Below are positions 38,620 to 64,000 of a stretch of DNA of 64,000 bases, one piece after another (the first letter of the stretch is position 1; every line of letters starts with the position of its first letter). Source of the DNA: Candidatus Eiseniibacteriota bacterium (GTDB lineage Bacteria; Eisenbacteria; RBG-16-71-46); assembly GCA_016178725.1 (NCBI GenBank), contig JACOSV010000026.1, positions 21,965 to 85,964 on the forward strand, written 5' to 3'. Both the position numbers and the translations under genes were made by a program. Under the pieces are notes generated by a model that was not told the DNA's origin, searched no databases, and saw only the letters and a program-made list of their open reading frames with translations.

Positions 38620-39923
38620 GCGTCGTGCGCGCCGACGCGGGCACCCTGCCCGACCTGTTCGCGCGCGCCGCGCGCGTGACCCCGGGCGGCGTCCACTCGC
38701 CGGTGCGCGCCTTCCGCTCGGTCGGCGCTGCGCCGCTCGCGATCGTCGAGGCACGTGGTGCGCGGTTACGCGACAGCGGCGGGCGCGAGTACGTGGACTG
38801 GATCGGCGCGTGGGGCCCGGCGCTGCTCGGCCACGCGCATCCGACGGTCATCGACGCGGTCGAGCGCGCCGCCCATCGTGGCCTGCTCTTCGGCCTCGTG
38901 TCGCCCGACGAAGCGAGGCTCGCCGAGCGCGTCACCGCGCGCGTCCCGTGCTGCGACATGGTGCGCTTCGTCGCCACCGGCACCGAAGCCGCGATCAGCG
39001 CGGTGCGGCTCGCCCGCGCCGCGACCGCGAGGCCCGGGATCCTCAAGTTCGACGGGTGCTATCACGGGCATGGCGATGCGTTCCTCATCCGCGCCGGATC
39101 GGGTGCCGCGACGATGGGCGTGCCCGACTCGCCCGGAGTCACCGAGGGCGCCGCGCGCGACACGTGGATCGCGCGCTACAACGACCTCGAGGACGTCGAT
39201 CGCGTCTTCGTCGCCGCCGCGGGCGCGATCGCCTGCGTCATCGTCGAGCCGGTCGCCGGCAACATGGGCTGCGTCCCTCCCGAACCGGGGTTCCTCTACG
39301 GCCTGCGCGAGCGTTGCGATCGCCACGGCGCGCTTCTCGTGCTCGACGAGGTGATCACCGGATTCCGGCTCGGTCCGGGAGGCGCGGCGCAGCGCTTCGG
39401 CATTCGGCCTGACCTCGTGACGATGGGCAAGGCGCTGGGCGGCGGCATGCCGCTCGCCGCCTACGGCGGGCGGGTCGACTTGATGCGGAAGATCGCGCCC
39501 GAAGGGCCGGTCTACCAGGCTGGCACGTATGCAGCACATCCGGTCTCGATCGCCGCGGCGCTCGCGGTGCTCGACGTCCTCGACGGCGACCCGGGCATCT
39601 GGGGGCGACTCGAGGCGGCGGGCGAGCGTCTCGAGGCCGGACTCACCCGGGCGGCGGTCGCGGCCGGCGTCCCGGCACGTGTCCAGCGCGTCGGCTCGAT
39701 GTGGACGTTCTTCTTCACGTCGGCGCCGGTGCGCTCGTGGGACGATGCCGGCGCCGTCGACCGCGCGCGCTACGCCGCCTTCTTTCGCGCCATGCTCGAG
39801 CGCGGCGTGCTGCTGCCGCCATCGCCGTTCGAGAGCGCGTTCCTCTCGATCGCCCACGGTGACGCGGAGATCTCCATCACGCTCGACGCAGCGCACGCGA
39901 GCCTCGCGGAGGTCGCACGGTGA
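38616..39923 (+). CDS. hemL: Glutamate-1-semialdehyde 2,1-aminomutase.
   Basis: GGVHSPVRAF, VDEVITGFRLG, TMGKALGGGMP (PLP-Lys). ATGA overlap with hemB. Confidence 0.9.
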   Translation: MSVVRADAGTLPDLFARAARVTPGGVHSPVRAFRSVGAAPLAIVEARGARLRDSGGREYVDWIGAWGPALLGHAHPTVIDAVERAAHRGLLFGLVSPDEARLAERVTARVPCCDMVRFVATGTEAAISAVRLARAATARPGILKFDGCYHGHGDAFLIRAGSGAATMGVPDSPGVTEGAARDTWIARYNDLEDVDRVFVAAAGAIACVIVEPVAGNMGCVPPEPGFLYGLRERCDRHGALLVLDEVITGFRLGPGGAAQRFGIRPDLVTMGKALGGGMPLAAYGGRVDLMRKIAPEGPVYQAGTYAAHPVSIAAALAVLDVLDGDPGIWGRLEAAGERLEAGLTRAAVAAGVPARVQRVGSMWTFFFTSAPVRSWDDAGAVDRARYAAFFRAMLERGVLLPPSPFESAFLSIAHGDAEISITLDAAHASLAEVAR

Positions 39924-40951
39924 ACGACCGCTTCTTGCGAGCCTGCCGGTGCGAGCCGGTCGACCGCACGCCGATCTGGATCATGCGACAGGCGGGCCGC
40001 TACCTGCCGGAATACCGTGAGCTGCGTGCGCGTGCCGACTTCCTGACGGTGTGCCGCACGCCCGACCTGGCGGTCGAGGCCAGCCTCCAGCCGCTGCGTC
40101 GCTTCGCGCTCGACGCGGCGATCGTGTTCTCGGACATCCTGCTCCCGCTCGGGGCGCTCGGCATCGAGATGACGTTCGATCCGGGCCCGCGCCTCGCGCG
40201 GCCGGTGCGCACGCGCGCGGACATCGAGGCGCTCGCGGGGCGGCCGGCGGCCGAAGTGCTGGGCTGCGTCGCCGAGACGGTCCGGATGCTGCGGCGCGAG
40301 CTCGACGGACGCACGCCGGTGATCGGGTTCTGCGGCGGGCCCTTCACCCTCGCCGCGTACATGACCCAGGGCGAGGGGCGCGACGGCTTCCCCGAGGTGC
40401 GCGCGTTGCGACACCGCGATCCCGAAGCATTTCGGCGGTTGCTCGACCGCCTCGCGTCGCTCGCCGCCGAGACGCTGGAGCTCCAGATCGCCGCCGGCGC
40501 GCAGGCCGTGCAGATCTTCGACTCGTGGGCGGGCGTGCTCGACGCGGCCGATTACCGCGCCTTCGCGCTGCCGGCCGTGCGGAAGGTGGTGCACGCGATC
40601 CGGCACGCTGGCGTGCCCGTCATCTATTTCGCGCCCGCTGCGGGACACCTGCTCGCGGACGCCGCGACCTGCGGCGCCGACGTTCAGGGTGTCTGCTGGC
40701 GGACGCCGATCTCGGAGGCGCGGCGCCGGACGGGAGGCGCGGTCGCGATCCAGGGCAACCTCGACCCTGCCGCCCTGCTCGCGGGGCCCGATGCCGTGCG
40801 CGCCGCCGCCCGCGCCGTGCTCGACGACGCCGGCGACGCTCCGGGCCACGTCATGAACCTCGGCCACGGCATTCTGCCCGGCACGCCGATCGCGTCGGTG
40901 GAAGCGCTGGTCGAGGCGATGGCCGGATCGGCCGCGCGAAGGGCGTCGTGA
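39920..40951 (+). CDS. hemE: Uroporphyrinogen decarboxylase.
   Basis: PIWIMRQAGRYLPEY signature. GTGA overlap with hemL. Confidence 0.9.
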   Translation: MNDRFLRACRCEPVDRTPIWIMRQAGRYLPEYRELRARADFLTVCRTPDLAVEASLQPLRRFALDAAIVFSDILLPLGALGIEMTFDPGPRLARPVRTRADIEALAGRPAAEVLGCVAETVRMLRRELDGRTPVIGFCGGPFTLAAYMTQGEGRDGFPEVRALRHRDPEAFRRLLDRLASLAAETLELQIAAGAQAVQIFDSWAGVLDAADYRAFALPAVRKVVHAIRHAGVPVIYFAPAAGHLLADAATCGADVQGVCWRTPISEARRRTGGAVAIQGNLDPAALLAGPDAVRAAARAVLDDAGDAPGHVMNLGHGILPGTPIASVEALVEAMAGSAARRAS

Positions 40952-42387
40952 ATCCGGAGGGCGCACCGAATGGATCGCGCGTCGGCGTGACCGCGGACGG
41001 CGGACCCGGCACGGCCGAACTGCTGCGTCGCTACGACCGGCCCGCGCCACGCTACACGTCGTATCCGACCGCGCTCGAGTTCCATCCCGGATTCACGGAG
41101 AACGACTATCGCGAGCGCCTCGCCGCGGCCGACCGGCAGACCGGTGCGCCGCTGTCGGTCTACGCACACCTTCCGTTCTGCGAGGAGCGGTGCCTGTTCT
41201 GCGGGTGCAACGTCGTCATCACGCGGCACCGCGACGTCGCCGCCGAGTATCTGGACCACGTCCTGCGCGAGGTCGATCTCCTGGCGCGCCAGCTGCCGCA
41301 TCGTCGCCGAGTCTCGCAGATGCATTGGGGCGGCGGCACGCCCACCTACTATCCGGCGGCCGACCTCGAACGCCTGTTCCACGCCTTCGCCGAGCGGTTC
41401 CAGTTCACTACGGACGCCGAGATCGGCATCGAGGTCGATCCGCGCGTGACGAGCGGCGACCAGATCGCCGTGCTCCGCCGGCTCGGGTTCAACCGGATTT
41501 CGATGGGCGTCCAGGACTTCGCCGCCGACGTGCAGCAAGCGGTGCACCGCGTGCAGAGCTACGAGCTGACCCGCTCACTGATCCAGCGGTCGCGCGAGGA
41601 AGGCTTCGATTCGATCAACATCGACCTGATCTACGGCCTTCCGTATCAGACGATCGACGGTTTCACGCGCACGCTCGAGCAGGTGATCACGCTCCGTCCC
41701 GAGCGGGTCGCCGTCTACTCGTTCGCGTACGTGCCGTGGATCAAGGCCCACATGAAGGGCATTCCGACCGAGGCGCTTCCCGACGGCGCGCTCAAGCTGC
41801 AGCTGCTGGCCCGCTCGATCGAGGCGTTCGTGGCGGCCGGCTATCGCGCGATCGGGATGGACCACTTCGCGCTGCCGGACGACGAGCTGGCTCGCGCCGT
41901 CGCAGCGCGCACGCTCCACCGCAATTTCATGGGCTACACGGTGCAGACCGCGCGCGACATGGTGGGCGTGGGGATCTCGGCGATCGGCGACATCCAGGGC
42001 GCGTACGTCCAGAACGTCAAGAAGTTGCCCGACTACTACGGCGCGATCCGTGAAGGCCGCTTCGCGGTCGAGCGCGGGCTGGCGCTGACCGACGACGATC
42101 GCGCGCGGCGCCACGTGATCACGACGCTCATGTGCAACGGGCACCTCGACGTGCGGGAGGTCGAGCGGCGGTTCGACCTCCGATTCGCCGAGACCTTCGC
42201 CCGTGAGCTGGACGAGCTGCGCGGTCCCGACTCGCCCGTGGCACACGGCCTCCTCACGGTGACCGACGACGCGCTCGAGCTGACGCCGCTCGGGCGGCTG
42301 TTCGTGCGCAACGTCTGTATGGTCTTCGATCGCTACCTCCGCGCCCGCACGGCGCAGGAGAAGCCCGTGTTCAGCCGCGCGGTCTAG
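40948..42387 (+). CDS. hemN: Oxygen-independent coproporphyrinogen-III oxidase (radical SAM).
   Basis: RYTSYPTA; radical-SAM CEERCLFCGC (CxxxCxxC); HemN C-terminal region. GTG overlaps the hemE stop. Confidence 0.85.
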   Translation: MNPEGAPNGSRVGVTADGGPGTAELLRRYDRPAPRYTSYPTALEFHPGFTENDYRERLAAADRQTGAPLSVYAHLPFCEERCLFCGCNVVITRHRDVAAEYLDHVLREVDLLARQLPHRRRVSQMHWGGGTPTYYPAADLERLFHAFAERFQFTTDAEIGIEVDPRVTSGDQIAVLRRLGFNRISMGVQDFAADVQQAVHRVQSYELTRSLIQRSREEGFDSINIDLIYGLPYQTIDGFTRTLEQVITLRPERVAVYSFAYVPWIKAHMKGIPTEALPDGALKLQLLARSIEAFVAAGYRAIGMDHFALPDDELARAVAARTLHRNFMGYTVQTARDMVGVGISAIGDIQGAYVQNVKKLPDYYGAIREGRFAVERGLALTDDDRARRHVITTLMCNGHLDVREVERRFDLRFAETFARELDELRGPDSPVAHGLLTVTDDALELTPLGRLFVRNVCMVFDRYLRARTAQEKPVFSRAV

Positions 42388-42389
42388 CC

Positions 42390-43790
42390 ATGCGCGTCGT
42401 CGTCATCGGCGCCGGCATCGCCGGCCTCACGATCGCGCTTCGCGTCGCGCAGCGCGGCGCGGCGGTGACCGTGCTCGAGGCGGGCGAGACCGCCGGGGGC
42501 CACGTGCAGACGCTCCGCGAGGACGGCTTCATCGTCGAGGCCGGCCCCAACGGGTATCTGGAGAGCGCCGATGCGCCGGAACCGGGCCGGCTCGTGGGCG
42601 ACCTGGGTCTGCTCGCGGCGGTGATCGAGGCGCGGCCCGCGGCTCGCCGCCGCCATGTCGTCCGCGGTGGGCGCCTGCGGAGGGTTCCCGATTCGCCCGG
42701 CGGCCTGCTCGGATCCGACGCCCTGGGCCTGGGAGGCAAGCTGCGCCTGCTCGCGGAACCGTTCGTGCCTCCGGCGCCGGCGGGGCGCGAAGAGAGCGTC
42801 CACGCGTTCGCACGGCGGCGCGTCGGGCGCGAGGCGGCCGACGTGCTGGTCGATACCGCGGTCATGGGCATCTCCGCCGGCGACAGCCGCGAGTTGTCCA
42901 TGAACGCGGCGTTCCCGCAGGTGACCGAGATGGAGCATCGGCACGGCAGCCTCTTCCGCGCCATGATGGCCCGGCGCGCGCGGAGGCCACGGCTCGTGAG
43001 CTTCGCCGGCGGCATGCGAACGATGATCGACGCGCTGGTCGCGCGCCTCGGGCCCGATCTGCGCTTGCGTACGCGCGCGCTCGGGCTCGAGCGCGGTGAA
43101 GACGGATGGCGCATCGCGCTCGACGGGGGCGAGGTCGTGACCGCCGACCGCGTCGTGCTGGCGGCGCAGGCCGCGCACGCGGCGGGCCTCGTGCGCGTAC
43201 TCGATCGCGAGCTGGCGGAGGGGCTCGGCGCGTTTCCGTTCGCCGGACTCGCGGTGGTGGCGATGGCGTTCCCGGCCGCCGCCGTGCCTCGCGCGCTCGA
43301 CGGCTACGGCTACCTGGTCGCGCGCAGCGAGGGCCTCGACACGCTGGGCGTCGTCTGGGATTCCTCGCTGTTCGCGGGCCGCGCGCCGGAGGGCCGGGTG
43401 CTGCTGCGCGCGATGATGGGCGGCGCGCGGCGACCCGAGGTCGCGGCACTGGAGCCCGACGATCTGGTCCGGCGGGCTCGCGCCGATCTGGCGACCGTGC
43501 TGGGCGTCCACTCCGCGCCCGCTCGCGTCTGGGCGTGGCGGCGGCCGGCGGCCATCGCGCAGTACACGTTCGGCCACATCGAACGCGTCGCCCGCGCCCG
43601 CGCGCTGGCCGCGCGATACCCGGGCCTCGAACTGTGCGGCACGTCGTACGACGGTGTTTCCTTCGGCGCCGGCGTCGCGTCGGCCGAGGCGATCGCGGCC
43701 CGAGTGCTCGGATCGCCGGACGCTCCGCGCGCGGCCACGCCGCCGCCGGGGGCGGAGTCCGCGCGCGCCGAGGTCGTGAGGATCGCGTGA
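42390..43790 (+). CDS. hemY: Protoporphyrinogen oxidase (HemY-type FAD amine oxidase).
   Basis: FAD dinucleotide fold VVVIGAGIAGLTIA...VLEAGETAGGHV; HemY-like length (466 aa). Confidence 0.75.
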   Translation: MRVVVIGAGIAGLTIALRVAQRGAAVTVLEAGETAGGHVQTLREDGFIVEAGPNGYLESADAPEPGRLVGDLGLLAAVIEARPAARRRHVVRGGRLRRVPDSPGGLLGSDALGLGGKLRLLAEPFVPPAPAGREESVHAFARRRVGREAADVLVDTAVMGISAGDSRELSMNAAFPQVTEMEHRHGSLFRAMMARRARRPRLVSFAGGMRTMIDALVARLGPDLRLRTRALGLERGEDGWRIALDGGEVVTADRVVLAAQAAHAAGLVRVLDRELAEGLGAFPFAGLAVVAMAFPAAAVPRALDGYGYLVARSEGLDTLGVVWDSSLFAGRAPEGRVLLRAMMGGARRPEVAALEPDDLVRRARADLATVLGVHSAPARVWAWRRPAAIAQYTFGHIERVARARALAARYPGLELCGTSYDGVSFGAGVASAEAIAARVLGSPDAPRAATPPPGAESARAEVVRIA

Positions 43791-44779
43791 GCCGGCGCCA
43801 CGTCGTCCTCGTCACCTACGGCGAGCCGCCGACCGCATCGTTCGGCGCGCAGCTCCGCTATTCGTGGCGTATCCTGCTCGGGCTCACGCGCTCGGTCGCG
43901 CCGATTCCGATTCCGCTGCTGCCGTGGATCGCGTTCTCGCGCGCCCGCTTCCGCACGCGACTCTGGACCACGGAACGCTACGGCTCGCCGCTCGAGCCCA
44001 TCACGCGCGATCAGGCCGCGGGCCTCGTGCTCGCGCTCGCCTCCGTCGCCCCGGGCACCGACTGGCGCGTCCACGTCGCCTACGAGTTCCGCGATCCGAC
44101 GCTGCTGGCTACGGTTTGCTTGCTGCCCGACGACGAGCCCGTGGACGTGATGCCCGCCTACGTCGCCGACTCCGCCTTCACCCACGAGATCGCGCGCAGC
44201 ACGCTTGCCCGCTGGCCGGGCGGTCGCGCCCGCCGCGCGCCGCTGCGCGTGCTGCCGCCGCTGGACGAGGAGATCCTTGCCGATCTATGCGCCCGCCACG
44301 TGATCACCGAGGCGGCCCGGCGGAATGCGGTCGGCCCGGAATGGGGGGTCGTGCTCGCCGCACACGGGACGCTGCTCGAACCCCGGCGGCCGATCGAAAC
44401 CGGGCGGGTCGCCACGGAGCGGATCGCCGCGCGCATCGCCGCGCATCTCACGGGTCACTTTGGCGCCGTGAGGCTCGGCTGGCTGAACCACGTCTACGGA
44501 GGACGCTGGACCGGGCCGCCGGTCGAGGTCGCGCTACGCCGGATGGTCGAGGCAGGGTTTCGACGGCTGGTCTACTTCCCATTCGGGTTCTCCGCCGACA
44601 ACGCAGAGAGCGAGCTCGAAGGGCGGATCGCACTCCGGGCGGCCCCCGAGCTCGAGTCGATCCACCTGCCGTGCCTCAACGCCGCGCCGGAGTACCTCGA
44701 GGCGCTCGCGCGTCAGTTGGCGTGCGCCATCCCCGCGCATGGAATCTCCTCCGTCGACAGCTTTGCGGGGCGGGGCTAG
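43787..44779 (+). CDS. hemH: Ferrochelatase-family protein (divergent HemH/CpfC-like).
   Basis: VVLVTYGEP (LVN.GTP-like), VVLAAHGTLLEP (fSAHslP-like His region). Terminal gene of the hem operon. GTGA overlap with hemY. Confidence 0.6.
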   Translation: MSRRHVVLVTYGEPPTASFGAQLRYSWRILLGLTRSVAPIPIPLLPWIAFSRARFRTRLWTTERYGSPLEPITRDQAAGLVLALASVAPGTDWRVHVAYEFRDPTLLATVCLLPDDEPVDVMPAYVADSAFTHEIARSTLARWPGGRARRAPLRVLPPLDEEILADLCARHVITEAARRNAVGPEWGVVLAAHGTLLEPRRPIETGRVATERIAARIAAHLTGHFGAVRLGWLNHVYGGRWTGPPVEVALRRMVEAGFRRLVYFPFGFSADNAESELEGRIALRAAPELESIHLPCLNAAPEYLEALARQLACAIPAHGISSVDSFAGRG

Positions 44780-53137: not shown

Positions 53138-54250
53138 TCATGACCTCGCCGCTCGACATCGCGACGCGATCGCCTCGGCGTAGACCTCGCGCACCTGGCG
53201 CGCGACCTCGCTCCAGCCGTAACGCTCGGCACGCAGGCGATTGCGCTCGCCCATCGCGCTCCGCCGCGCCGGATCGCGCGCGAGCTCGGCGATCGCGCCC
53301 GCGAGCGCCGCGCCGTCGCCGGGCGGGATGAGCCGCGCGCCTTCCAGGTCCACCACGTCGCGATAGCCGCGGATGTCCGAGCACACGACCGGCCGCCCGC
53401 ACGCCATCGCCTCGAGCAGCACGATGCCGAAGGACTCCTGGCCGGTCGCCGGGGAGATGAAGAGATCGCAGCGCCGGTAGCGCTCGGCGAGCGTTTCCTC
53501 GACGCCGATCGGGCCGTGGATCGTGACGCCGGGGAGCGCGTGGCTCGCGTCGGGCGTCCCCTGGCCGACGATGTCGAGCGACACCTTCTCGCCGCGCTCG
53601 AGCAACCGGCGATAGGCGTCGAGCAGCACCGGCAGGCCCTTCCGCGGGTCGCGCCAGTTGCCGACGAACAGGAGCCGCAGCGTGCCGTTCGGAGCACTGC
53701 CTTCGCCCGCCGCGGGCGGGCGGAACGTCGCGGTCGGGACGCCGTTCGGGATCACGTGGAGCGGGCGTTTCCACACGCGCCCGGCGTAGTCCGCGGCGGC
53801 GGGCGAGACGGCGATCGCGGCCTGCACGGCGGGGAGGAGCGCGGCGCCCACCACGGCGCGCGCGACGCGGCTCATCGCCGGCTCGGACTCCGCGTACATG
53901 TGGAACGTCGCGACGTGCGCGGCGCGGCCCGGCAGCCGCAGCGCGTACCAGCTGATGACCGGAACGAGCGGCTCGTGGTGGTGGACGACGTCGAACCGTC
54001 CGTGCTGGATCATCGCACCGACCGTCCAGGGCGCGACGAGCAGCGCCATGTGGTTCGCCGCGCCGTTGGCCGGGATGTTGACGATGCCCCCGAACCCGTG
54101 GACGCCGGCGGGCGGCGTCCCCCGGCTCCAGGGGCCGGCGACCGTGACCTCGTCGCCCGCCCGGCGCAATGCGTCCGCGAGGTGGAACGCATGGCGTTTG
54201 ACCCCGCCCTCATCGGCGATGTCGTAGGGGACGACGATGCAAACGCGCAT
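53138..54250 (-). CDS. GT4 glycosyltransferase, PimA-like (phosphatidylinositol mannosyltransferase-like).
   Basis: The N-terminus MRVCIVVPYDIADEGGVKRHAFHLADALRRAGDEVTV resembles PimA. C-terminal E..G.VLLEAMACGRPVV motif. Confidence 0.75.
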   Translation of the reverse strand: MRVCIVVPYDIADEGGVKRHAFHLADALRRAGDEVTVAGPWSRGTPPAGVHGFGGIVNIPANGAANHMALLVAPWTVGAMIQHGRFDVVHHHEPLVPVISWYALRLPGRAAHVATFHMYAESEPAMSRVARAVVGAALLPAVQAAIAVSPAAADYAGRVWKRPLHVIPNGVPTATFRPPAAGEGSAPNGTLRLLFVGNWRDPRKGLPVLLDAYRRLLERGEKVSLDIVGQGTPDASHALPGVTIHGPIGVEETLAERYRRCDLFISPATGQESFGIVLLEAMACGRPVVCSDIRGYRDVVDLEGARLIPPGDGAALAGAIAELARDPARRSAMGERNRLRAERYGWSEVARQVREVYAEAIASRCRAARS

Positions 54251-54282
54251 GGGCGACCGGAAGACGGCCGAACGCTAACGGG

Positions 54283-54900
54283 TCAGCGACGCGCCTCGAT
54301 CGCCTCGGCGAATCGGGCTGCAACCCAGCGGTTACCTTCCTGCGTCAGATGGATCCCGTCGACGAAGCAATCGAGCGGGATGTCCGACAGCTCGACCAGC
54401 GCCAGACGGCGCCGGGCGGCGATCGAGCGATAGGCCTCGTTCAGCTCGAGGACGTGACCGTTCATGCTCCAGGGCTCGCGCGGCGCGCCGAACCCGCGCT
54501 TGCCCGGCAGGGTGGCGAGGTACACGAAGCGTCCCGCCGCGCGGCACTGGTCGAGCACCGCTTCGCAGGCGATCAGCGTCTGCTCGAGCGATCGGTTCTG
54601 CTTCGCGTCGTTGGTCCCGCCCCACAGGCACACTTCGCCGGCCTCGGGCACGGAGAGAAGCTCGTGGTAATTGCGTCGCCAGATCTCGGACCAGCCGTCG
54701 CCCGGCACGGCGAAGTTGACCGTCGCCCAGATCTGGTCGTGCTTCTGGGACAGCATGCGGCCCAGGTACATGGGATAGCTCATCCCGTCCGGGTCACGCG
54801 ACCCGTAGGTCAGCGAATCGCCCTGACAGGCGATGAGTCCGTAAACCAGACCGCGGCGTGTCGTTGGCCTCGTCTCCGTAAGGCTTGCTTGTTCGGTCAT
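54283..54900 (-). CDS. SGNH/GDSL hydrolase (lipase/acylhydrolase-like).
   Basis: GDSLTYG block I, GTNDA block III, DGIHLT block V. Immediately upstream of the GT4 gene on the same strand. Confidence 0.65.
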   Translation of the reverse strand: MTEQASLTETRPTTRRGLVYGLIACQGDSLTYGSRDPDGMSYPMYLGRMLSQKHDQIWATVNFAVPGDGWSEIWRRNYHELLSVPEAGEVCLWGGTNDAKQNRSLEQTLIACEAVLDQCRAAGRFVYLATLPGKRGFGAPREPWSMNGHVLELNEAYRSIAARRRLALVELSDIPLDCFVDGIHLTQEGNRWVAARFAEAIEARR

Positions 54901-55052
54901 CGTCCCCCCATGTCCGCTGCTCGTCGCAATGCCGCCCGGAGTGTATATTCCCGCGCGCCGGTCGAGCAACGTGCCGCCACACCTCACCCGTACCCCGGAG
55001 ACTGCCGGGATCGTCCGGGAGGGCGTCGCCCTTCCTGCCGATTCGCCCGATC

Positions 55053-56429
55053 ATGACCCATTCCCAAACCGTCGAACCCGCTCTCGGAGCGAAAGCTCCG
55101 CGCATCCTGACCGAGATTCCCGGGCCCAAGAGCCGCGCGCTGGTGGCGGCCGAGGCGGCCAATCTGGCGCCGGGTGTCCAGTCCATATCAACTCTTTCGG
55201 GGCTGGCCATGGCCCGCGGCCAGGGCTCGGTCCTCGAGGACGTGGATGGCAACCGGTTCCTCGATCTGGCGGCCGGGATCTGCGTCAACGCCCTGGGCCA
55301 CGCCCACCCCAGGTACCGAAAGATCCTCCAGGACCAGCTCGACGACCTCACGGTCGGCTCGTTCACGACCGAGCATCGGGCGAAGGGGCTGGCCAAGGTC
55401 GCGTCCCATACGCCGCCCGGCCTCGACAAGATCCAGCTCTACTCGGGCGGCACGGAGGCGGTCGAGGCCGCGATGCGCCTCGCCAAATCGGCAACCAAGA
55501 AGTACGAGTTCCTGTCGTTCTGGGGCGGATTCCACGGCAAGAGCGCGGGGACGCTGTCGCTGATCGGGGACGGGACCAAGAACGGCCTCGGTCCCTCGAT
55601 GCCGGGCACGTTCCACGCGCCCTACGCCGACTGCTATCGCTGCCCGCTCGGGATGACCTATCCCTCGTGCGGCGTCGCGTGCGCCGAGTTCGCCGACCAG
55701 GTCATCCGCCATTCGAGCACCGGGGCGCTGGCGGCGATCCTGATCGAGCCGATCCAGGGGACGGCCGGGAACATCGTCCCGCCGCCCGAATACCTGCCGG
55801 CGATCCAGTCGATCGCCAGGCATCACGGGGCGCTGCTGATCGCGGACGAGATGATCACCGGCTTCGGCCGCACCGGCCGCTGGTTCGGGGTCGAGCACAG
55901 CGGCGTCGTGCCCGACGTGATCACGATCGGCAAGGGCCTCGGCGCCGGGTTCCCCGTCTCGGGGCTGGTTTCGACCGACGCGATCACCCGGAGCGCGCCG
56001 TGGGGGCTGCCGTCGGGGTCGAGCTCGAGCTATGGCGGCAATCCGCTCGCGGGTGCGGCCGTCCATGCCTCGGTCAGTGTGATCGAAGAGGACGGACTGG
56101 TCGATAACGCTGCCAGGGTAGGCGAATGGATGCTGGGCCGATTCCGGGAAATGCAAGAGCGGCATCCGTTTATCGGCCACGTCCAGGGCAAGGGCTTGCT
56201 GATCGGCCTCGAACTGGTCAAAGATCGGCAAACGCGCGAGCCACTCGACCGTAAGGTTTGCCGGCACGTGTTTCAGGAGTGTCTCAAGCGCGGGCTGATC
56301 GGCATGGTGTATTCACCGCACGTCCGTGTGAATCCCGCGCTCTCCATCGATCAAGCCACCGCCGAAACGGCGCTCGGGATCCTGGACGAAGTGTTCACGC
56401 AACTGGGGCGGGAGGGTCATTGGCGCTGA
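55053..56429 (+). CDS. Class-III PLP-dependent aminotransferase.
   Basis: ADEMITGFGRTGRWF, TIGKGLGAG (PLP-Lys), Aminotran_3 architecture, 458 aa. Confidence 0.8.
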   Translation: MTHSQTVEPALGAKAPRILTEIPGPKSRALVAAEAANLAPGVQSISTLSGLAMARGQGSVLEDVDGNRFLDLAAGICVNALGHAHPRYRKILQDQLDDLTVGSFTTEHRAKGLAKVASHTPPGLDKIQLYSGGTEAVEAAMRLAKSATKKYEFLSFWGGFHGKSAGTLSLIGDGTKNGLGPSMPGTFHAPYADCYRCPLGMTYPSCGVACAEFADQVIRHSSTGALAAILIEPIQGTAGNIVPPPEYLPAIQSIARHHGALLIADEMITGFGRTGRWFGVEHSGVVPDVITIGKGLGAGFPVSGLVSTDAITRSAPWGLPSGSSSSYGGNPLAGAAVHASVSVIEEDGLVDNAARVGEWMLGRFREMQERHPFIGHVQGKGLLIGLELVKDRQTREPLDRKVCRHVFQECLKRGLIGMVYSPHVRVNPALSIDQATAETALGILDEVFTQLGREGHWR

Positions 56430-58558
56430 AGCTGCGCGGCGCGCTGCTCGGGGCGGGGAACATCGCGCTCAAGAGCCACGCGCCGCAGTGGACGCTCGAT
56501 CCCGAACTGCGCGAACGGGTCGAGATCGTCGCGGTCGCCGACCTCGCGCCCGCCAACATCGCCGCGATCCGCGAGTTCCTACCCGACGCGCGCGCCTACG
56601 CGGATGCCGAGCAGCTGCTCGCCAGCGAGTCGCTCGACTTCTGCGACATCTGCACCCCACCCTTCACACACCGCGCGCTGATCGAGCGCGCCGTGGCCGC
56701 CGGGCTCCACGTCGTGTGCGAGAAGCCGCTCGCGCCGACGCTGGCCGACGCCGAGGCGATCGCCGCGACCGTGCGCGCCGCGGGCATCGTGTTCCTGCCC
56801 TGCCACCAGTACCGCTACTCGCCGCAGTGGGAGGCGGTGCGGCGGCTCCTGCCGCGGATCGGGCGCGTGTCGTTCGCCGAGTACGAGGTGCTGCGCTCGG
56901 CGGCCAACGACGGCAATCCGCACTGGCAGCCGACGTGGCGCACGCAGCCCGAGCTCGCGGGTGGCGGGATCCTCGTGGATCACGGGACCCATATCTTCTA
57001 TCAGCTGCGGGCGCTTCTCGGCACGCCGGACACCGTCGCGGCGACCGTGTCGCGCAGCAAGCATCAGGGCTACGGCGTCGAGGACACCGCCGAGGTGACG
57101 CTCGACTACGGGGATCACGCGGCGCGCATCCATCTCACCTGGGCCGCGGGCCGGCGCGCGATCACGTTCCGCTTCGTCGGCGAGAAGGGCGAGATCGTCG
57201 GCGACGACAGGAGCCTCACGCTGCGCGACGGGCGCACCGAGACGTTCCACTTCGACGACGGCATGAGCCAGAACTCCTCGCATGCGGGCTGGTACCGGCC
57301 GCTGCTGCGTGAGTTCACCGGCCGCGTGCTCGCGGGCGGGTCGAGCGACGAGTCGCTCGACGAGGCGCTCTACGTGACGCGACTGATCGATTGCGCCTAC
57401 GCGTCGGCCGTGGCCGGCCACGCGCTGGCGCTCGGCGCGGATCGGGTCGCGGCCGCGCCGAACGGCGCACCGGTCGCGCCTGCCGCGAGCGTCGCGCACG
57501 TGACCCGCGTGCCCGCGCCGGCCGGGGTTCCGGCGCTGGCGGCGGCTGCGGTCGCCACGCCCGCCGCGAGCGTCACGCCCGCCGAACCGCCCGCGCGCCG
57601 GCGTCACCGCCTCGCGCTCGCGCTGCGGCTCGCGGGGCTGGTCGCGGTGGTCGCCGGCGCCTTTGTGCTCGTCCGCCGGCTCGACTGGTCCGACTTCTGG
57701 GACGCGATCAGCACGTCCGATCCGCGCTGGCTCGCGCTCGCCGCGGCGCTCAACCTCGTGGCGCTGTGCTTCGCCGCGGTCCGCTGGGTCGCGCTGCTGC
57801 GGCCGCTCTCGCCGCTCTCGCGCTGGCGCGACGCGTTCAACGCGCTGGTCGTCGGCCTCACCGTCTCGGCCGTGGTCCCGGCGCGCGGCGGCGAAGTCGC
57901 GCGCATGGCGTGGCTCCATCGCCGCACCGGACTCTCGAAGATCGCGATCCTCGGCTCGATCGGCCTCGATCAGCTGCTCAACGTCGCCGGGCTGATGGTG
58001 GGCCTCGCGCTCATGCCGTGGCTCGGCGGCATTCCGACCTGGCTCCAGTTCGGCGTGCGCCTCGCCCTGTTCGCGTTCGCGGCCGGCGTCACGCTCGTCC
58101 TCCTCCTGCTCCCGCGCGGCGAGCGCGCCCGCGCGGCGGCCGGATCGTCCGGCAGCTTCATGGCGCGCATCCGCTCCGGCCTCGCCGCGGCGCGCAGCCC
58201 GCGCGCGCTCGGCGGATCGCTCGCCGCCTCGCTCACGGTGTGGGGCCTCGAGCTGATCGTGATGCGCGTCGCGCTCCACGCGTTGGACATCGACCTGCCG
58301 TACTCGGCGACGCTGGTGGTGCTCGCCGCGGTCAACCTGATGCTCGCGATTCCGGTCGCGCCGGGGAACATCGGCACGCTCGAGCTCGGCGCGACCCTCG
58401 GGTTGCGCGGCTTCGGCGTCGCCAACGAGCGCGCGCTCGCGTTCGCGGTCTGCTACCACGCGCTGCAGATCGTGCCGATCGCGCTGCTCGGGCTGCTGAT
58501 TGCGGGCGCCGAGAGCTGGAACACCGGCTTCGCCGAGTGGGGTGGCGGCGGCGGATGA
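56420..58558 (+). CDS. Fusion protein: N-terminal Gfo/Idh/MocA-family NAD(P) oxidoreductase plus C-terminal MprF-flippase-like (LPG-synthase TM) membrane domain.
   Basis: GGAGGG then TTG, overlapping the aminotransferase stop. Rossmann LLGAGNIALKSHAP, EKPLA catalytic region. A ~60-aa Ala/Pro linker, then 8 TM helices with the flippase-like family motifs. Confidence 0.6.
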   Translation: MALKLRGALLGAGNIALKSHAPQWTLDPELRERVEIVAVADLAPANIAAIREFLPDARAYADAEQLLASESLDFCDICTPPFTHRALIERAVAAGLHVVCEKPLAPTLADAEAIAATVRAAGIVFLPCHQYRYSPQWEAVRRLLPRIGRVSFAEYEVLRSAANDGNPHWQPTWRTQPELAGGGILVDHGTHIFYQLRALLGTPDTVAATVSRSKHQGYGVEDTAEVTLDYGDHAARIHLTWAAGRRAITFRFVGEKGEIVGDDRSLTLRDGRTETFHFDDGMSQNSSHAGWYRPLLREFTGRVLAGGSSDESLDEALYVTRLIDCAYASAVAGHALALGADRVAAAPNGAPVAPAASVAHVTRVPAPAGVPALAAAAVATPAASVTPAEPPARRRHRLALALRLAGLVAVVAGAFVLVRRLDWSDFWDAISTSDPRWLALAAALNLVALCFAAVRWVALLRPLSPLSRWRDAFNALVVGLTVSAVVPARGGEVARMAWLHRRTGLSKIAILGSIGLDQLLNVAGLMVGLALMPWLGGIPTWLQFGVRLALFAFAAGVTLVLLLLPRGERARAAAGSSGSFMARIRSGLAAARSPRALGGSLAASLTVWGLELIVMRVALHALDIDLPYSATLVVLAAVNLMLAIPVAPGNIGTLELGATLGLRGFGVANERALAFAVCYHALQIVPIALLGLLIAGAESWNTGFAEWGGGGG

Positions 58559-59307
58559 CGCCGACCGCCATCGAGCGCATCGCGTTCCTCTCGTTCCTCA
58601 CGATGATCGCGGTCGCCGTGGTGTCGATGGGCGCCTACGCGTGGCTCGGCCGCAAGCGCGACGCCGACGTCGCGGGCAAGGGCGGCCAGTTCCTCGGCGG
58701 CGCAGGCGATTTCCCGCTCCACTGGTTCATGTGGGCGATCACGCCGGCGGTGACGATCTCGCGCGCGCTCGGCCTCACGCCCGACTTCTACAACTACGTC
58801 GGCCTCGCGTTCGGCATCGCAGGTGGCTGGCTGGTGGCGATCGGGCGGCTCGAGCTCGCCGGCTGGGCGATCGTGCTCGGCGGCGTCGCCGACGTGCTCG
58901 ACGGCCGCATCGCGCGGCTCACTCAGACCGCCTCCAACTTCGGCGACTTCATCGACAGCACGTTCGACCGCTTCGTCGAGGCGGCGACGTTCCTCGGCTT
59001 CGCCTGGTACCTGCGCGACACGCGCTGGGGGCCGCTGCTCTCGGGCGCCGCGCTGTCGGGCTCGCTGATCGTCAGCTACGCGCGCGCGCGCGGCGAAGTG
59101 CACGGCGTCAACTGCACCGGCGGGCTGATGCAGCGCGCCGAGCGCATGGCCTTGACCGCGCTGGTCTGTTTCCTCGGCCCGCCGATCTCGTCGGCGCTCG
59201 GCCTCGCGCACGGCACGCTGATCGAGTGGGTCCTGGGGCTGATCGCCGCCGGCACCTGGTACACCGCGATCTACCGCACCGCCTGGATCGCCGCGCGGCT
59301 GCGCTGA
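58555..59307 (+). CDS. CDP-alcohol phosphatidyltransferase-family protein.
   Basis: DVLDGRIARLTQTASNFGDFIDSTFDRF fits the D-G-x2-A-R-x8-G-x3-D-x3-D signature. Polytopic membrane protein. ATGA overlap with the upstream gene. Confidence 0.8.
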   Translation: MTPTAIERIAFLSFLTMIAVAVVSMGAYAWLGRKRDADVAGKGGQFLGGAGDFPLHWFMWAITPAVTISRALGLTPDFYNYVGLAFGIAGGWLVAIGRLELAGWAIVLGGVADVLDGRIARLTQTASNFGDFIDSTFDRFVEAATFLGFAWYLRDTRWGPLLSGAALSGSLIVSYARARGEVHGVNCTGGLMQRAERMALTALVCFLGPPISSALGLAHGTLIEWVLGLIAAGTWYTAIYRTAWIAARLR

Positions 59308-62835: not shown

Positions 62836-63606
62836 TCAGCGCATCGCCCCGGCGATCGCCTTGAGCGACCGCGGCAGGTGCGTGCTCCAGTAACTCCACG
62901 TGTGGGCGCCCGGGAACTCGTGATACGCGTGCGGGACGCCGAGGCCGGTGAGCGTCTCGTGGAACGCGCGGTTGTCGGCCGCCTCGGGATCGCCCGCGCC
63001 GCAATCGAAGTAGAGCGGGATCGCGCGCAACCGCCCGGCCGCGCCGGCCGCGGTCAGCGCCGGGCTGTGCTCGGCGAGCAGCCGCGAGGCGCCCGGCCCG
63101 CACCCCAGGATCGCGAAGGCCGAGAACTCGCGTCGCAGGCGGAAGCATCCGCTGTGTCCGCCGGCGGCGCCGAACACGTCGGGATGGCGGATCACGAGAT
63201 TGAACGCGGCGGTGGCGCCGTCCGAGATCCCGATCACCGCGCGGCCCCCGGGGGTCGTGCGCGTGCGGAACGTCGCGTCGGTCCACGCCACGAGGTCGCG
63301 CGCGACGTAGTCCTCCATGCGCGTCGCGCCGCGCTGCGCGTTCATGTAGATCGTGCGCATCCACAGTCCGCGCGCGTTGCCGTTCGGGCACACGAGGATC
63401 ACGGGCGGGATCTCGCCGCGCGCGATCAGCGCGTCGGCGATCGCGTGCGCTTTGGCCTGCGTGAACCAATCGCCGTCGGCGCCCGGCCACCCGTGCAGCA
63501 AGGTGACGACGGGATAGCGCCGCGCCGCGGCCTCCTCCCGCCCGTACTCCGCGGGCAGGTACACGTGAACCCGGCGCCGCGCCTCACCGAGCGACGGCGC
63601 GGGCAT
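62836..63606 (-). CDS. Alpha/beta-hydrolase: putative esterase (esterase/enterochelin-esterase-like family).
   Basis: RVHVYLPAEY...RYPVVTLLHGWPG, nucleophile elbow GISDG. A longer N-terminal extension to 63825 is possible. Confidence 0.55.
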   Translation of the reverse strand: MPAPSLGEARRRVHVYLPAEYGREEAAARRYPVVTLLHGWPGADGDWFTQAKAHAIADALIARGEIPPVILVCPNGNARGLWMRTIYMNAQRGATRMEDYVARDLVAWTDATFRTRTTPGGRAVIGISDGATAAFNLVIRHPDVFGAAGGHSGCFRLRREFSAFAILGCGPGASRLLAEHSPALTAAGAAGRLRAIPLYFDCGAGDPEAADNRAFHETLTGLGVPHAYHEFPGAHTWSYWSTHLPRSLKAIAGAMR

Positions 63607-63674
63607 GGCGTGACGCGCGACGGTGCCGGCCGCGTGCGTGTCCGCGGGCCGTCGCTGCGGCGTCGGCGCGGCGC

Positions 63675-64000
63675 TCACGGATGCGGCAGGCGCTGGAGGT
63701 ACGACCACAGCCCGCCGCCGGGACTCTGCGCGCGCACCAGCGCGATCGCGACCTGCGGCAGCGCGAGCGGATGGGGATAGATCAGGAACCGGTCTTCGAA
63801 CTCCGGCGCGAACTTCTTCTTCCACAGGAACAGGCCCTTGAAGTCGTAGAAGCGCGCGAGATGCTGGCTCAAGAACCCGCGCGCGCGGTCGGCGCGCGTC
63901 TCGACCGCCGGCTCGCCGTCGTCACCGTCGGCGGGCTCGTCCACGCTCGCGAGGGCCGAGAGCGAGAGCGAGAGCAGCCGATCGCCGCGCTCGCGCGCGC
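63675..64000 (-). CDS. 3' end of an MprF C-terminal-domain-like gene (aminoacyl-phosphatidylglycerol synthase, DUF2156-like). Partial; the 5' end lies beyond the window.
   Basis: The reading frame is open to the window edge. The C-terminal ...FYDFKGLFLWKKKFAPEFEDRFLIYP resembles the conserved C-terminus of the LPG-synthase/DUF2156 family. Confidence 0.4.
   Translation of the reverse strand, partial: ARERGDRLLSLSLSALASVDEPADGDDGEPAVETRADRARGFLSQHLARFYDFKGLFLWKKKFAPEFEDRFLIYPHPLALPQVAIALVRAQSPGGGLWSYLQRLPHP

Follow-up and report, generated by a model that had tools for sequence, protein, structure and literature searches.

A conserved aminotransferase, dehydrogenase and phosphatidyltransferase operon of an uncultured Eisenbacteria lineage as a candidate source of an aminated inositol phospholipid

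Within the 64-kb stretch of Eisenbacteria DNA analysed here (the window), positions 53138-59307 carry an operon which, in the reading towards which we lean, if only slightly, uses CDP-diacylglycerol to build a phospholipid with an amino-deoxy-inositol ('inosamine') head group, the product being then flipped and, in this lineage, glycosylated. The public annotation of the cassette genes consists of generic names only, and no cultured carrier of the cassette was found. An earlier note on this DNA was aware of no characterised pathway combining these parts; likewise, a literature search retrieved no description of the cassette, of the pathway or of an aminated inositol lipid.

GC3 frame analysis and translations of the open reading frames define exactly five genes in this interval, with the following features:

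53138..54250, minus strand: PimA-like GT4 glycosyltransferase (370 aa; NCBI MBI1796224.1; Pfam assignment)
54283..54900, minus strand: SGNH/GDSL hydrolase or acyltransferase, predicted cytoplasmic (205 aa; NCBI MBI1796225.1, 166 aa; PF13472)
54901..55052, no strand: divergent intergenic region, presumed from its position only to hold the promoters of both transcription units
55053..56429, plus strand: class-III (omega-type) PLP aminotransferase (AT), core (458 aa; MBI1796226.1; PF00202)
56420..58558, plus strand: fusion of Gfo/Idh/MocA and LPG_synthase_TM domains (DH-TM), TTG start (712 aa; MBI1796227.1)
56420..57445, plus strand: Gfo/Idh/MocA NAD-dependent dehydrogenase (DH) domain, core (fusion residues 1 to ~342)
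57446..57592, plus strand: Ala/Pro-rich disordered linker of the fusion (residues ~342-391)
57593..58558, plus strand: flippase-like LPG_synthase_TM membrane domain (residues ~392-712; 7-8 hydrophobic helices)
58555..59307, plus strand: CDP-alcohol phosphatidyltransferase (CDP-AP) resembling phosphatidylinositol-phosphate (PIP) synthases, core (250 aa; MBI1796228.1; PF01066)

The divergent layout with a coupled plus-strand trio, as described in the earlier note, agrees with these coordinates: AT and DH-TM overlap by 10 nt (TTG at 56420, AT stop codon at 56427-56429), and DH-TM and CDP-AP by 4 nt (ATGA at 58555-58558), which fits translational coupling. All domains named in that note were also recovered by Pfam, far over the gathering cut-offs, including the proposed fusion of a Gfo/Idh/MocA dehydrogenase with an MprF-flippase-like domain (PF01408, PF22725 and PF02894 together with PF03706 in a single 712-aa protein). 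The predicted GT4, AT, DH-TM and CDP-AP are identical to the NCBI proteins listed above; the 166-aa SGNH product of NCBI is devoid of the catalytic GDS block, which is retained with the 205-aa start used in relatives. The intergenic region 54901..55052 contains no sigma-70 consensus site, no Rfam match and no block conserved with the related loci L082 or L026.

The core enzymes

By sequence, CDP-AP is nearest to the PIP synthases. Among the NCBIfam models it scores highest with archaetidylinositol-phosphate (AIP) synthase (122.7 bits), followed by the BT_1523-type enzyme (98.2 bits), PIP synthase (94.5 bits), di-myo-inositol-phosphate-phosphate (DIPP) synthase (41.9 bits), PssA (26.8 bits) and PgsA (22.9 bits), and it remains under the curated equivalog cut-offs, that of PIP synthase (170 bits) included. 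A plain PgsA or PssA orthologue, the outcome that the earlier note had set against its own proposal, is ruled out by scores that fall far short of the cut-offs of 109 and 107 bits, respectively. The closest solved relatives are the mycobacterial and Renibacterium PIP synthases. CDP-AP, which has an additional N-terminal transmembrane helix, carries the motif D113xxD116GxxAR121...G130xxxD134xxxD138, and residues R139, S174, R194, R197 and R241 of the inositol-phosphate pocket are invariant in 16 orthologues. All the residues that form the phosphate pocket of M. tuberculosis PIP synthase, i.e. R94, S132, R152, R155 and R195 (PMC6506517), are kept.

AT belongs to PF00202 (312 bits) and scores under all the curated NCBIfam equivalog cut-offs. 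All 72 cluster-associated enzymes share the PLP-binding lysine (K268 of GabT), D239, E206 and the glutamate-binding R398; R141 and E211 of GabT are replaced by lysine and threonine, respectively, in approximately 70 of the 72. With the substrate residues of GabT changed and the curated cut-offs missed, a GabT orthologue, also considered in the earlier note, is ruled out as well.

The DH domain (PF01408, PF22725, PF02894) contains the invariant glycines of the Rossmann fold, D41 at the end of beta-2 as in NAD-type enzymes, E101-K102-P103 and the D187/H191 pair. IolG is its top named NCBIfam model (73.8 bits for a cut-off of 355). In the AF2 model the domain has a pLDDT of ~90; scyllo-inositol dehydrogenase (5YAB) and, among aminoglycoside enzymes, the 3''-dehydrogenases GenD2 and KanD2 rank among its top fold matches, at 18-24% sequence identity. 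By its modelled fold, DH lies among cyclitol/aminoglycoside secondary-alcohol dehydrogenases that are partnered with aminotransferases, a fold which does not tell cyclitol from sugar substrates. The linker is of low complexity (pLDDT 30-44), and the 7-8 helices of the membrane domain are seen both in hydropathy plots and in the AF2 model. This domain matches PF03706 (164.8 bits, cut-off 33.4) and the 'flippase-like domain' TIGR00374 (49.9 bits, cut-off 43.2), and aligns with residues 5-289 of the MprF model.

Conserved gene order and the link to inositol

The order AT-DH(-TM)-CDP-AP is kept in ~25 related loci of uncultured bacteria (Vicinamibacteria, Eisenbacteria, Gemmatimonadaceae, Krumholzibacteriia and Latescibacteria metagenome-assembled genomes), in which the flanking genes are unrelated. 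Since AT lies immediately 5' of DH in 24/25 of these close-type loci and CDP-AP immediately 3' of DH in 21/23, with varying flanks, the arrangement is not due to chance. The membrane domain is fused to DH in 14 close-type loci and missing in 9 of 23. The automatic names 'aspartate aminotransferase family', '4-aminobutyrate aminotransferase-like' and 'PgsA' might suggest that a GABA/ornithine-type aminotransferase, a sugar dehydrogenase and PgsA came to lie side by side by accident; such a meaningless adjacency is hardly credible, being contradicted by synteny across more than 70 loci of many phyla with changing flanks, by the overlapping genes, by the existence of both DH-TM and CDP-AP-DH fusions (the latter in protein P0423), and by the failure to match the models and key residues of PgsA and GabT.

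Further orthologues of AT (47-59% identity) and DH (33-45%) occur in ~50 distant loci of other phyla (Alphaproteobacteria, Desulfobacterota, Nitrospirota, Methylomirabilota, Thermoanaerobaculia and others), with AT immediately 5' of DH in 44/49; overall, AT identity across close and distant loci ranges from 47 to 78%. Here the pair shares an operon with myo-inositol-1-phosphate synthase (MIPS), a HAD phosphatase, a cytidylyltransferase-like NTP-transferase, an ATP-grasp protein, a CDP-AP for which DIPP synthase is the best model (100 bits) and a PF03706 protein that passes the HpnL model (285 bits, cut-off 196). MlaA, MlaC and MMPL genes are found near these clusters, no glycosyltransferase is among their conserved genes, and one Eisenbacteria locus has the distant-type gene set in another order. 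These MIPS-linked orthologues of AT and DH provide independent support for the idea that the substrate is a cyclitol. The CDP-AP of the window and the distant ones share 31% identity over 106 residues, and the arginine following the last catalytic aspartate is kept in the former and is an asparagine in 38/38 distant-type enzymes. Because the CDP-AP and PF03706 parts are not orthologous between the two cluster types, the functional combination was assembled twice.

The distant clusters also bear on the nature of the product. Their MIPS, NTP-transferase, DIPP-synthase-like CDP-AP and phosphatase amount to a complete set for di-myo-inositol phosphate, of which the product could be an aminated relative, i.e. 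a soluble cyclitol phosphodiester rather than a lipid. This seems very unlikely, given that the CDP-AP of the window favours the AIP over the DIPP synthase model, that no nucleotidyltransferase for a CDP-cyclitol was found at the window, that a flippase-like domain is fused or clustered in both cluster types, and that the Mla and MMPL lipid-transport genes adjoin the distant type. Alternatively, the proposed head group may be carried by an anchor other than diacylglycerol (a ceramide, an ether or membrane-spanning lipid, or a hopanoid polyol), as the match of the distant PF03706 protein to the model of a hopanoid-locus protein, the neighbouring MlaA, MlaC and MMPL genes, and the proposal that the Bacteroides 'alternative' inositol cluster feeds inositol sphingolipids (PMC9246714) would suggest. 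We consider this, too, quite improbable: CDP-AP aligns end to end with PIP synthases that use CDP-diacylglycerol, the membrane domain of the window has no match to HpnL, and no hopanoid or sphingolipid genes are found in the annotated 30-64 kb of the window.

Accessory genes and the proposed pathway

The GT4 protein (PF13439, PF00534, PF13692), described as PimA-like in the earlier note, indeed has M. smegmatis PimA (2GEJ/4N9W) as its best PDB match (E=1e-44, 156 bits, residues 1-359, i.e. full length), the next-best fold reaching only 70 bits, and in alignment with PimA it retains Y9, G15/G16, H118, R201/K202 and the EX7E pair E274/E282. The SGNH protein (PF13472, 74 bits) has all the GDS, G, GxND and DxxH blocks, and neither a signal peptide nor a transmembrane segment was found in it. 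Both are lineage-specific accessories outside the core trio: GT4 is found in five loci only, i.e. the window and L015, L026, L082 and L083, where orthologues (55-73% identity) lie divergently beside AT, and SGNH in three (the window, L082 and L026).

On the preferred reading, CDP-AP would act like a PIP synthase on CDP-diacylglycerol and a phosphorylated cyclitol, the NAD-dependent DH domain would turn one hydroxyl on the inositol ring into a ketone by oxidation, and AT, with glutamate as the donor, would convert the ketone into the amine of an amino-deoxy-inositol head group. Oxidation and amination may take place either on inositol phosphate prior to transfer or on the lipid after it. Once complete, the lipid would be brought to the outer leaflet by the PF03706 domain, whose homologue in MprF performs this task for lysyl-phosphatidylglycerol. 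In this lineage, the PimA-like GT4 would place a sugar on the head group and the SGNH enzyme would attach or remove an acyl group, leading to a PIM-like aminoglycolipid. We infer inositol as the cyclitol of this organism, the ring position, the order of the steps, flipping, the sugar, the substrate and the product. If correct, the head-group amine would reduce the negative charge of the lipid.

Some observations count against this scheme. CDP-AP, DH and AT all score below curated equivalog cut-offs, which weakens the assigned specificities; the patchy occurrence of the membrane domain and of GT4 also weighs against it; and amination at C2, as in scyllo-inosamine, would block a PimA-type glycosylation at O-2. 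As already remarked in the earlier note for inositol-phosphate synthase, which a tblastn search across the 64 kb did not detect, no such synthase, phosphatase or kinase is present in the window or in any close-type locus, so that the supply of inositol is an assumption, and its phosphate would necessarily come from genes outside the window.

The presence of a PimA-like GT4 next to the operon lends itself to another explanation, in which CDP-AP and GT4 produce an ordinary PI/PIM-like glycolipid, and DH and AT aminate a sugar, either lipid-bound or nucleotide-linked, to yield an amino-sugar phosphoglycolipid. Dehydrogenase-aminotransferase pairs of the same fold do aminate aminoglycoside sugars (GenD2 and KanD2 being among the DH fold matches), and DH reaches 50 bits with the model of UDP-GlcNAc 3-dehydrogenase. 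However, most AT-DH-CDP-AP loci have no GT4 within 8 kb, and the distant clusters combine MIPS with cyclitol-activating genes, without a conserved glycosyltransferase, which makes this explanation rather unlikely.

Comparison with known systems

In mycobacteria, the neighbouring genes Rv2612c-Rv2610c code for the PIP synthase PgsA1, for PimA and for the acyltransferase PatA. The Eisenbacteria locus shares with this PI/PIM system the catalytic motif and complete inositol-phosphate pocket of the M. tuberculosis PIP synthase, and a PimA-like GT4 beside the CDP-AP operon with an acyl-handling enzyme in between. However, the mycobacterial operon has no aminotransferase, dehydrogenase or flippase-like domain, the acyl enzyme here is of the SGNH rather than the PatA type, CDP-AP differs by its extra N-terminal helix and sub-threshold score (94.5 versus 170), and the locus belongs to an uncultured soil bacterium of the Gram-negative type.

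The inositol-lipid clusters of Bacteroides, i.e. BT_1521-BT_1526 and the B. vulgatus-type 'alternative' cluster (Heaver et al. 2022, PMC9246714), contain a PIP synthase, or an NTP-transferase, a CDP-AP and a HAD protein, along with MIPS and a PF03706 protein annotated as 'lysylphosphatidylglycerol synthase' (PMC9246714). The 'alternative' gene set is exactly present in the distant clusters. As described, the Bacteroides clusters have neither the AT-DH pair nor the ATP-grasp gene, no aminotransferase or dehydrogenase being mentioned in PMC9246714, whereas at the window MIPS is unlinked and PF03706 is fused to DH. The distant clusters likewise resemble IPCT/DIPPS systems, with their DIPPS-like CDP-AP, nucleotidyltransferase, MIPS and phosphatase; the CDP-AP of the window, with its retained arginine, forms a separate branch.

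With MprF, the fusion shares the joining of a head-group-modifying enzyme and a PF03706 membrane domain in one polypeptide, the alignment of this domain with the flippase region at the N-terminus of the MprF model, and a predicted amine-bearing product. It differs in that an NAD dehydrogenase is found at the N-terminus instead of an aminoacyl-tRNA-dependent transferase at the C-terminus (PF09924 is absent), in reaching only 31 bits with the equivalog model (cut-off 600), and in that the amine would arise by transamination rather than aminoacylation.

Finally, in streptomycin and rhizopine pathways an inositol dehydrogenase and an aminotransferase lead to scyllo-inosamine, the inosamine-forming aminotransferases of antibiotic pathways being of the DegT/StsC type. 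The same ketone-to-amine logic is found in the aminocyclitol/aminoglycoside pairs GenD2/GenS2, KanD2/KanS2 and, for kanosamine, NtdC/NtdA; however, these are not orthologous to the pair described here (18-24% identity), whose aminotransferase is of class III and whose context is one of membrane-lipid genes rather than an antibiotic cluster.

Gene content of the locus

The window has a G+C content of about 72% and its raw lists of open reading frames (ORFs) are crowded with shadow ORFs; the coding frame was chosen, position by position, from the G+C content of the third codon position. On this basis, the interval 53138-59307 is filled exactly by five genes, and Pfam recovers every domain that was named in an earlier note made from the sequence alone:

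53138-54250, minus strand, GT4 glycosyltransferase
54283-54900, minus strand, SGNH hydrolase (205 aa)
55053-56429, plus strand, class-III aminotransferase (AT)
56420-58558, plus strand, Gfo/Idh/MocA dehydrogenase (DH) fused to a PF03706 (LPG_synthase_TM, flippase-like) membrane domain (712 aa)
58555-59307, plus strand, CDP-alcohol phosphatidyltransferase (CDP-AP)

The stop codon of the AT and the TTG start of the fusion overlap by 10 nt, and the stop of the fusion and the start of the CDP-AP overlap within ATGA. Four of the five gene calls agree exactly with NCBI proteins (MBI1796224.1 and MBI1796226-8.1), which bear generic names only. The NCBI call for the SGNH hydrolase (MBI1796225.1) has 166 aa and starts 3' of the catalytic GDS block; the predicted 205-aa start at 54900, which restores this block, as called in relatives, is the better call. 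No promoter consensus, Rfam family or conserved intergenic block was found at the locus, where a terminator search gave one prediction, at chance level.

Predicted activities of the gene products

The CDP-AP carries the PF01066 superfamily motif (D-x2-D-G-x2-A-R ... G-x3-D-x3-D) over TM2-TM3, with D113, D116, G117, A120, R121, G130, D134 and D138 invariant across 16 orthologues, besides an extra N-terminal transmembrane helix, and it scores 49.9 bits with PF01066 (cut-off 22). The NCBIfam models rank in the order archaetidylinositol-phosphate (AIP) synthase (122.7 bits; cut-off 180), BT_1523-type (98.2; 350) and phosphatidylinositol-phosphate (PIP) synthase (94.5; 170), and the protein falls below the curated equivalog cut-off in every family scored; judged by these scores, it is a distinct subfamily, for which the AIP, BT_1523 and PIP synthase types are the best-scoring families. 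The earlier note had allowed for a plain PgsA or PssA orthologue. Such orthology fails, the pgsA (22.9 bits; cut-off 109.1) and pssA (26.8; 107) models matching in the motif region only, and the score of 23.8 bits against the PgsA structure 7DRJ compares with 57 against PIP synthase, the best solved relatives being the mycobacterial and Renibacterium PIP synthases. The model of di-inositol-phosphate-phosphate (DIPP) synthase, at 41.9 bits, lies far behind as well.

In the Mycobacterium tuberculosis (Mtb) PIP synthase, the phosphate of inositol phosphate is bound at a site made of S132, R152, R155 and R195, and R94, adjoining the catalytic D93, is conserved in those CDP-APs that use inositol phosphate (PMC6506517, Grāve et al.). 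These Mtb positions (S132, R152, R155, R195 and R94) align in the window protein to S174, R194, R197, R241 and R139, respectively, each of which is invariant across the 16 orthologues. Thus, the PIP- and AIP-type scores together with the conserved phosphate pocket lead to the prediction of a PIP-synthase-like enzyme that would expect a phosphorylated cyclitol, which might be inositol 3-phosphate itself or the same compound in aminated form.

The AT belongs to class III (PF00202, 312 bits), and the equivalents of GabT K268 (the PLP Lys), D239 (the Asp at the pyridine N) and R398 (the Arg for the alpha-carboxylate of Glu/2-OG) are conserved in all 72 cluster-associated ATs. GabT orthology, also raised in the earlier note as a case against its reading, does not hold, as R141 is replaced by Lys in 69 and E211 by Thr in 70 of the 72, and TIGR00700 gives 266.6 bits versus a cut-off of 506.65. 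We take GabT R141 to be the substrate-carboxylate Arg and E211 its partner.

In the DH, the Rossmann glycines G7/G11/G13, D41, the EKP motif E101-K102-P103 and the catalytic D-x3-H pair D187/H191, as expected of a Gfo/Idh/MocA protein, are invariant in 23 sequences, and the model fold has a TM-score of about 0.8 to Gfo/Idh/MocA structures; the Asp at the end of beta-2 suggests an NAD rather than an NADP type. Its neighbours by fold are dehydrogenases that act on secondary alcohols in sugars and cyclitols, including scyllo-inositol dehydrogenase and GenD2/KanD2, which are partnered by aminotransferases. Inositol 2-dehydrogenase (IolG) was rejected as an identity, TIGR04380 giving 73.8 bits versus a cut-off of 355, though it is the best named model. 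The membrane domain of the fusion, with seven to eight hydrophobic helices (pLDDT about 90), passes both PF03706 (164.8 bits; cut-off 33.4) and TIGR00374 (49.9; 43.2) and is joined to the DH by an Ala/Pro-rich linker, disordered in the predicted model; in a fold search with the model of the whole fusion, the top 50 matches were all dehydrogenases. MprF itself was likewise rejected, the fusion having no PF09924 domain and only 31 bits with NF033480 (cut-off 600), but by homology the PF03706 domain is predicted to translocate the modified lipid. Since every curated cut-off is missed, the proteins of the locus lie outside the PgsA, PssA, GabT, IolG and MprF equivalog families.

On the minus strand, the description of the GT4 enzyme as PimA-like is borne out over its full GT-B length: it matches PimA (2GEJ/4N9W) with E=1e-44 across residues 1-359, the next fold reaching 70 bits, and no other solved structure comes near PimA as a match. 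It keeps the PimA-type Y9, G15/G16, H118, R201/K202, E274 and E282 (EX7E, catalytic His and nucleotide-phosphate Lys/Arg). PimA Q18, K123 and R196, presumably contacts to the inositol phosphate of phosphatidylinositol (PI), are K, S and N in the window protein. The 205-aa SGNH protein (PF13472, 74 bits) contains blocks I, II, III and V (GDS at residues 27-29, PGDG, GGTND and DGIH); a search of it for an export signal found none.

Conservation and the link with inositol

The four-domain architecture of the fusion recurs in more than 120 full-length homologues (50-70% identity). When one genome per species was scanned, 519 relatives were obtained, and the loci examined were those of the best 80 of these plus four contigs, from which a close set (28 loci, DH at least 50% identical to that of the window) and a distant set (54 loci, DH 32-45% identical) were defined.

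The close loci are found in metagenome-assembled genomes (MAGs) of Vicinamibacteria, Eisenbacteria, Gemmatimonadaceae, Krumholzibacteriia and Latescibacteria. In 24 of 25 testable loci the gene directly upstream of the DH is the AT, and in 21 of 23 the one directly downstream is a 250-aa CDP-AP orthologue; fusion to the membrane domain is seen in 14, and 9 lack this domain. The flanks vary by locus (Kdp genes, glycoside hydrolases, peptidases, TamAB) and the order AT-DH-CDP-AP is kept, which makes the trio the conserved unit. A divergent PimA-like GT4 gene beside the AT occurs in the window and four other loci only, and an SGNH gene at the same place in the window and two others only, and both are treated as lineage-specific accessories. 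As a separate observation, one Acidobacteriota locus (L084, 14059-15287) has a pair of NUDIX hydrolase genes some 1.2 kb downstream of the CDP-AP, from which they are separated by two small genes that lack Pfam matches; the mycobacterial pgsA1-pimA operon also ends with a NUDIX gene (Rv2609c).

The distant loci come from Alphaproteobacteria (e.g. Pseudolabrys and Roseiarcus), Desulfobacterota, Nitrospirota, Methylomirabilota and Rokubacteria, as well as from Thermoanaerobaculia, Gemmatimonadales, Myxococcota and Chloroflexota. Their AT is 47-59% identical to that of the window and directly upstream of the DH in 44 of 49 loci. Clustering of all neighbouring ORFs, followed by annotation of representatives, defined a recurrent operon of eight genes: myo-inositol-1-phosphate synthase (MIPS), HAD-IA phosphatase, NTP-transferase, a 283-aa protein, AT, DH, CDP-AP and a PF03706 protein. 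Its range is given by loci L031-L081, with the following example:

L043, 5121-13317, distant eight-gene operon

Within the flanks read, MIPS was counted in 25 of the 54 loci, the HAD phosphatase in 37, the NTP-transferase in 39, the 283-aa protein in 42, the CDP-AP in 39 and the PF03706 protein in 27. The latter is here a separate gene and passes the model of the hopanoid-locus membrane protein HpnL (285 bits; cut-off 196); MlaA, MlaC and MMPL genes are often nearby, and in one Eisenbacteria locus the same seven genes are arranged differently. This widespread operon appears to be uncharacterised. Of the more than 1,400 homologues of the 283-aa protein, some are automatically named RimK-type ATP-grasp; the protein has no Pfam family and a poor AlphaFold model (pLDDT 57.6), and its profile weakly matches ITPK1-type ATP-grasp inositol-phosphate kinases (E=0.003-0.01) and RimK (E=0.02), matches too weak to separate a kinase from a ligase. 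In a Chloroflexota locus (L024, 10639-11466), AT and DH are followed by an APH-family kinase in place of the CDP-AP, which may be an alternative way to phosphorylate the aminated product.

The distant CDP-AP (407 aa) is best matched by the DIPP-synthase half of IPCT/DIPPS (100 bits), and the position of Mtb R94 is Asn in 38 of 38 proteins of this type, consistent with another acceptor and with a CDP-cyclitol as donor. It shares 31% identity over 106 residues with the CDP-AP of the window, and the PF03706 domains of the two cluster types are barely alignable; on these comparisons, neither protein is orthologous between the types. AT, DH, CDP-AP and PF03706 have therefore been combined twice, a recurrence that argues strongly for their action in one pathway. 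Chance adjacency has next to no weight. Two predicted proteins among the relatives, which may be genuine Rosetta-stone fusions or the result of faulty gene calling, are P0423, a CDP-AP-DH fusion (DH 39% identical to that of the window) and thus a Rosetta-stone link, and P0397, a polysaccharide deacetylase-PF03706 fusion (membrane domain 48% identical), whose predicted architecture shows the PF03706 module joined to another amine-unmasking enzyme.

By its gene content, the distant version places the pathway downstream of inositol phosphate synthesis; amination of a sugar instead of inositol, for which the sugar-type fold neighbours of the DH might speak, is unlikely. Homologues of the MIPS, HAD, NTP-transferase and ATP-grasp proteins were found neither in the window nor in any of the 28 close loci, and the window falls outside the inositol-lipid clusters, of Bacteroides or distant AT-DH type, that contain MIPS. 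Its annotated part (30-64 kb) otherwise holds ordinary genes (a two-component system, AtuA, BioY, beta-oxidation genes, a ZnuA/ABC-3 transporter) and the following features:

34630-44779, plus strand, complete co-directional heme operon (hemA to hemH)
62836-63708, minus strand, esterase (PF00756), right window edge
63678-63908, minus strand, C-terminal 78 residues of an LPG_synthase_C (PF09924) protein, right window edge

The heme operon comprises glutamyl-tRNA reductase, porphobilinogen deaminase, HemD, ALAD, a second class-III aminotransferase (HemL type, 38616-39923), UroD, ferrochelatase, an oxidase of the amine-oxidase type and a radical SAM enzyme resembling HemN. The esterase and LPG_synthase_C genes, about 3.5 kb from the cassette, look like an aminoacyl-phosphatidylglycerol synthase/hydrolase-type pair; the LPG_synthase_C counterpart in a syntenic locus (L082, 16326-19018) has 611 aa, and the reading frame in the window seems interrupted upstream of 63944. 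This annotated remainder has no bearing on inositol. The inositol phosphate would have to be supplied by genes outside the window.

Candidate pathway and known systems

In the proposed pathway, the CDP-AP would join a cyclitol phosphate to CDP-diacylglycerol, the DH would oxidize one ring hydroxyl for subsequent transamination by the AT, and the PF03706 domain would translocate the product; in this lineage, the head group would afterwards be glycosylated by the PimA-like enzyme, and an acyl group would be gained or lost through the SGNH enzyme. The product is somewhat more probably than otherwise an aminated inositol phospholipid; a lipid anchor other than diacylglycerol is quite improbable, and a soluble DIP-like product very improbable. 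As to the order of steps, a soluble substrate, aminated before lipid attachment, is favoured by the conservation of the phosphate pocket and by the Kennedy-type logic seen in the distant clusters (free cyclitol to amine, to phosphate, to CDP-ester), whereas a DH that is fused to a membrane domain speaks for amination on the lipid, after attachment.

A broader reading, put forward tentatively and with rather more doubt than confidence, is that the AT-DH pair marks a widespread, unrecognised class of bacterial lipids with an aminocyclitol-phosphate (inosamine) head group, made by two independently assembled routes. The first, of the CDP-diacylglycerol/PIP-synthase type, with the DH fused to its own flippase-like domain, would be that of the window and of Vicinamibacteria, Eisenbacteria and Gemmatimonadota-like MAGs; the second, Kennedy-type, would lead from inositol to inosamine, its phosphate, CDP-inosamine and the lipid in Alphaproteobacteria, Nitrospirota, Methylomirabilota, Desulfobacterota and others. 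Lipids of this class could explain some unassigned aminophospholipids and aminophosphoglycolipids of soil and sediment lipidomes and, as MprF products do, would lower the surface charge of the membrane. Aminopentanetetrol lipids were rejected as the product and are a loose lead only, as a MIPS-linked pathway would not lead to their C5 chain; one distant locus is from a Thermodesulfatator MAG. We know of no pathway to the aminopentanetetrol head group, which occurs in lipids of Aquificae, Thermodesulfobacteria and Methanomicrobiales, and the literature found gives no genes for it.

Inositol phospholipids are considered rare in bacteria. A literature search, in which full-text coverage was incomplete and absence of evidence is all that can be read from a null result, found neither this gene combination nor a description of a bacterial lipid with an aminated inositol head group. 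If correct, the proposal would add a new head-group chemistry to bacterial membranes and would give a function to a gene set present in more than 500 species-level genomes of at least 10 phyla, mostly abundant uncultured soil lineages. It would also provide a second lipid-modifying enzyme fused to a flippase-like domain, after MprF, as well as genetic markers for unknown aminophospholipids in environmental lipidomics, and it would correct public labels such as PgsA, GABA aminotransferase-like and ‘flippase-like domain protein’.

Among known systems, the locus resembles the bacterial PI/PIM pathway with the addition of an amination step and a built-in flippase-like domain. It has in common with mycobacteria the PIP-synthase and PimA types, with the inositol-lipid clusters of Bacteroides a PF03706 gene, with MprF the idea of an enzyme-flippase fusion, and with the aminocyclitol antibiotic pathways the chemistry of the DH/AT pair.
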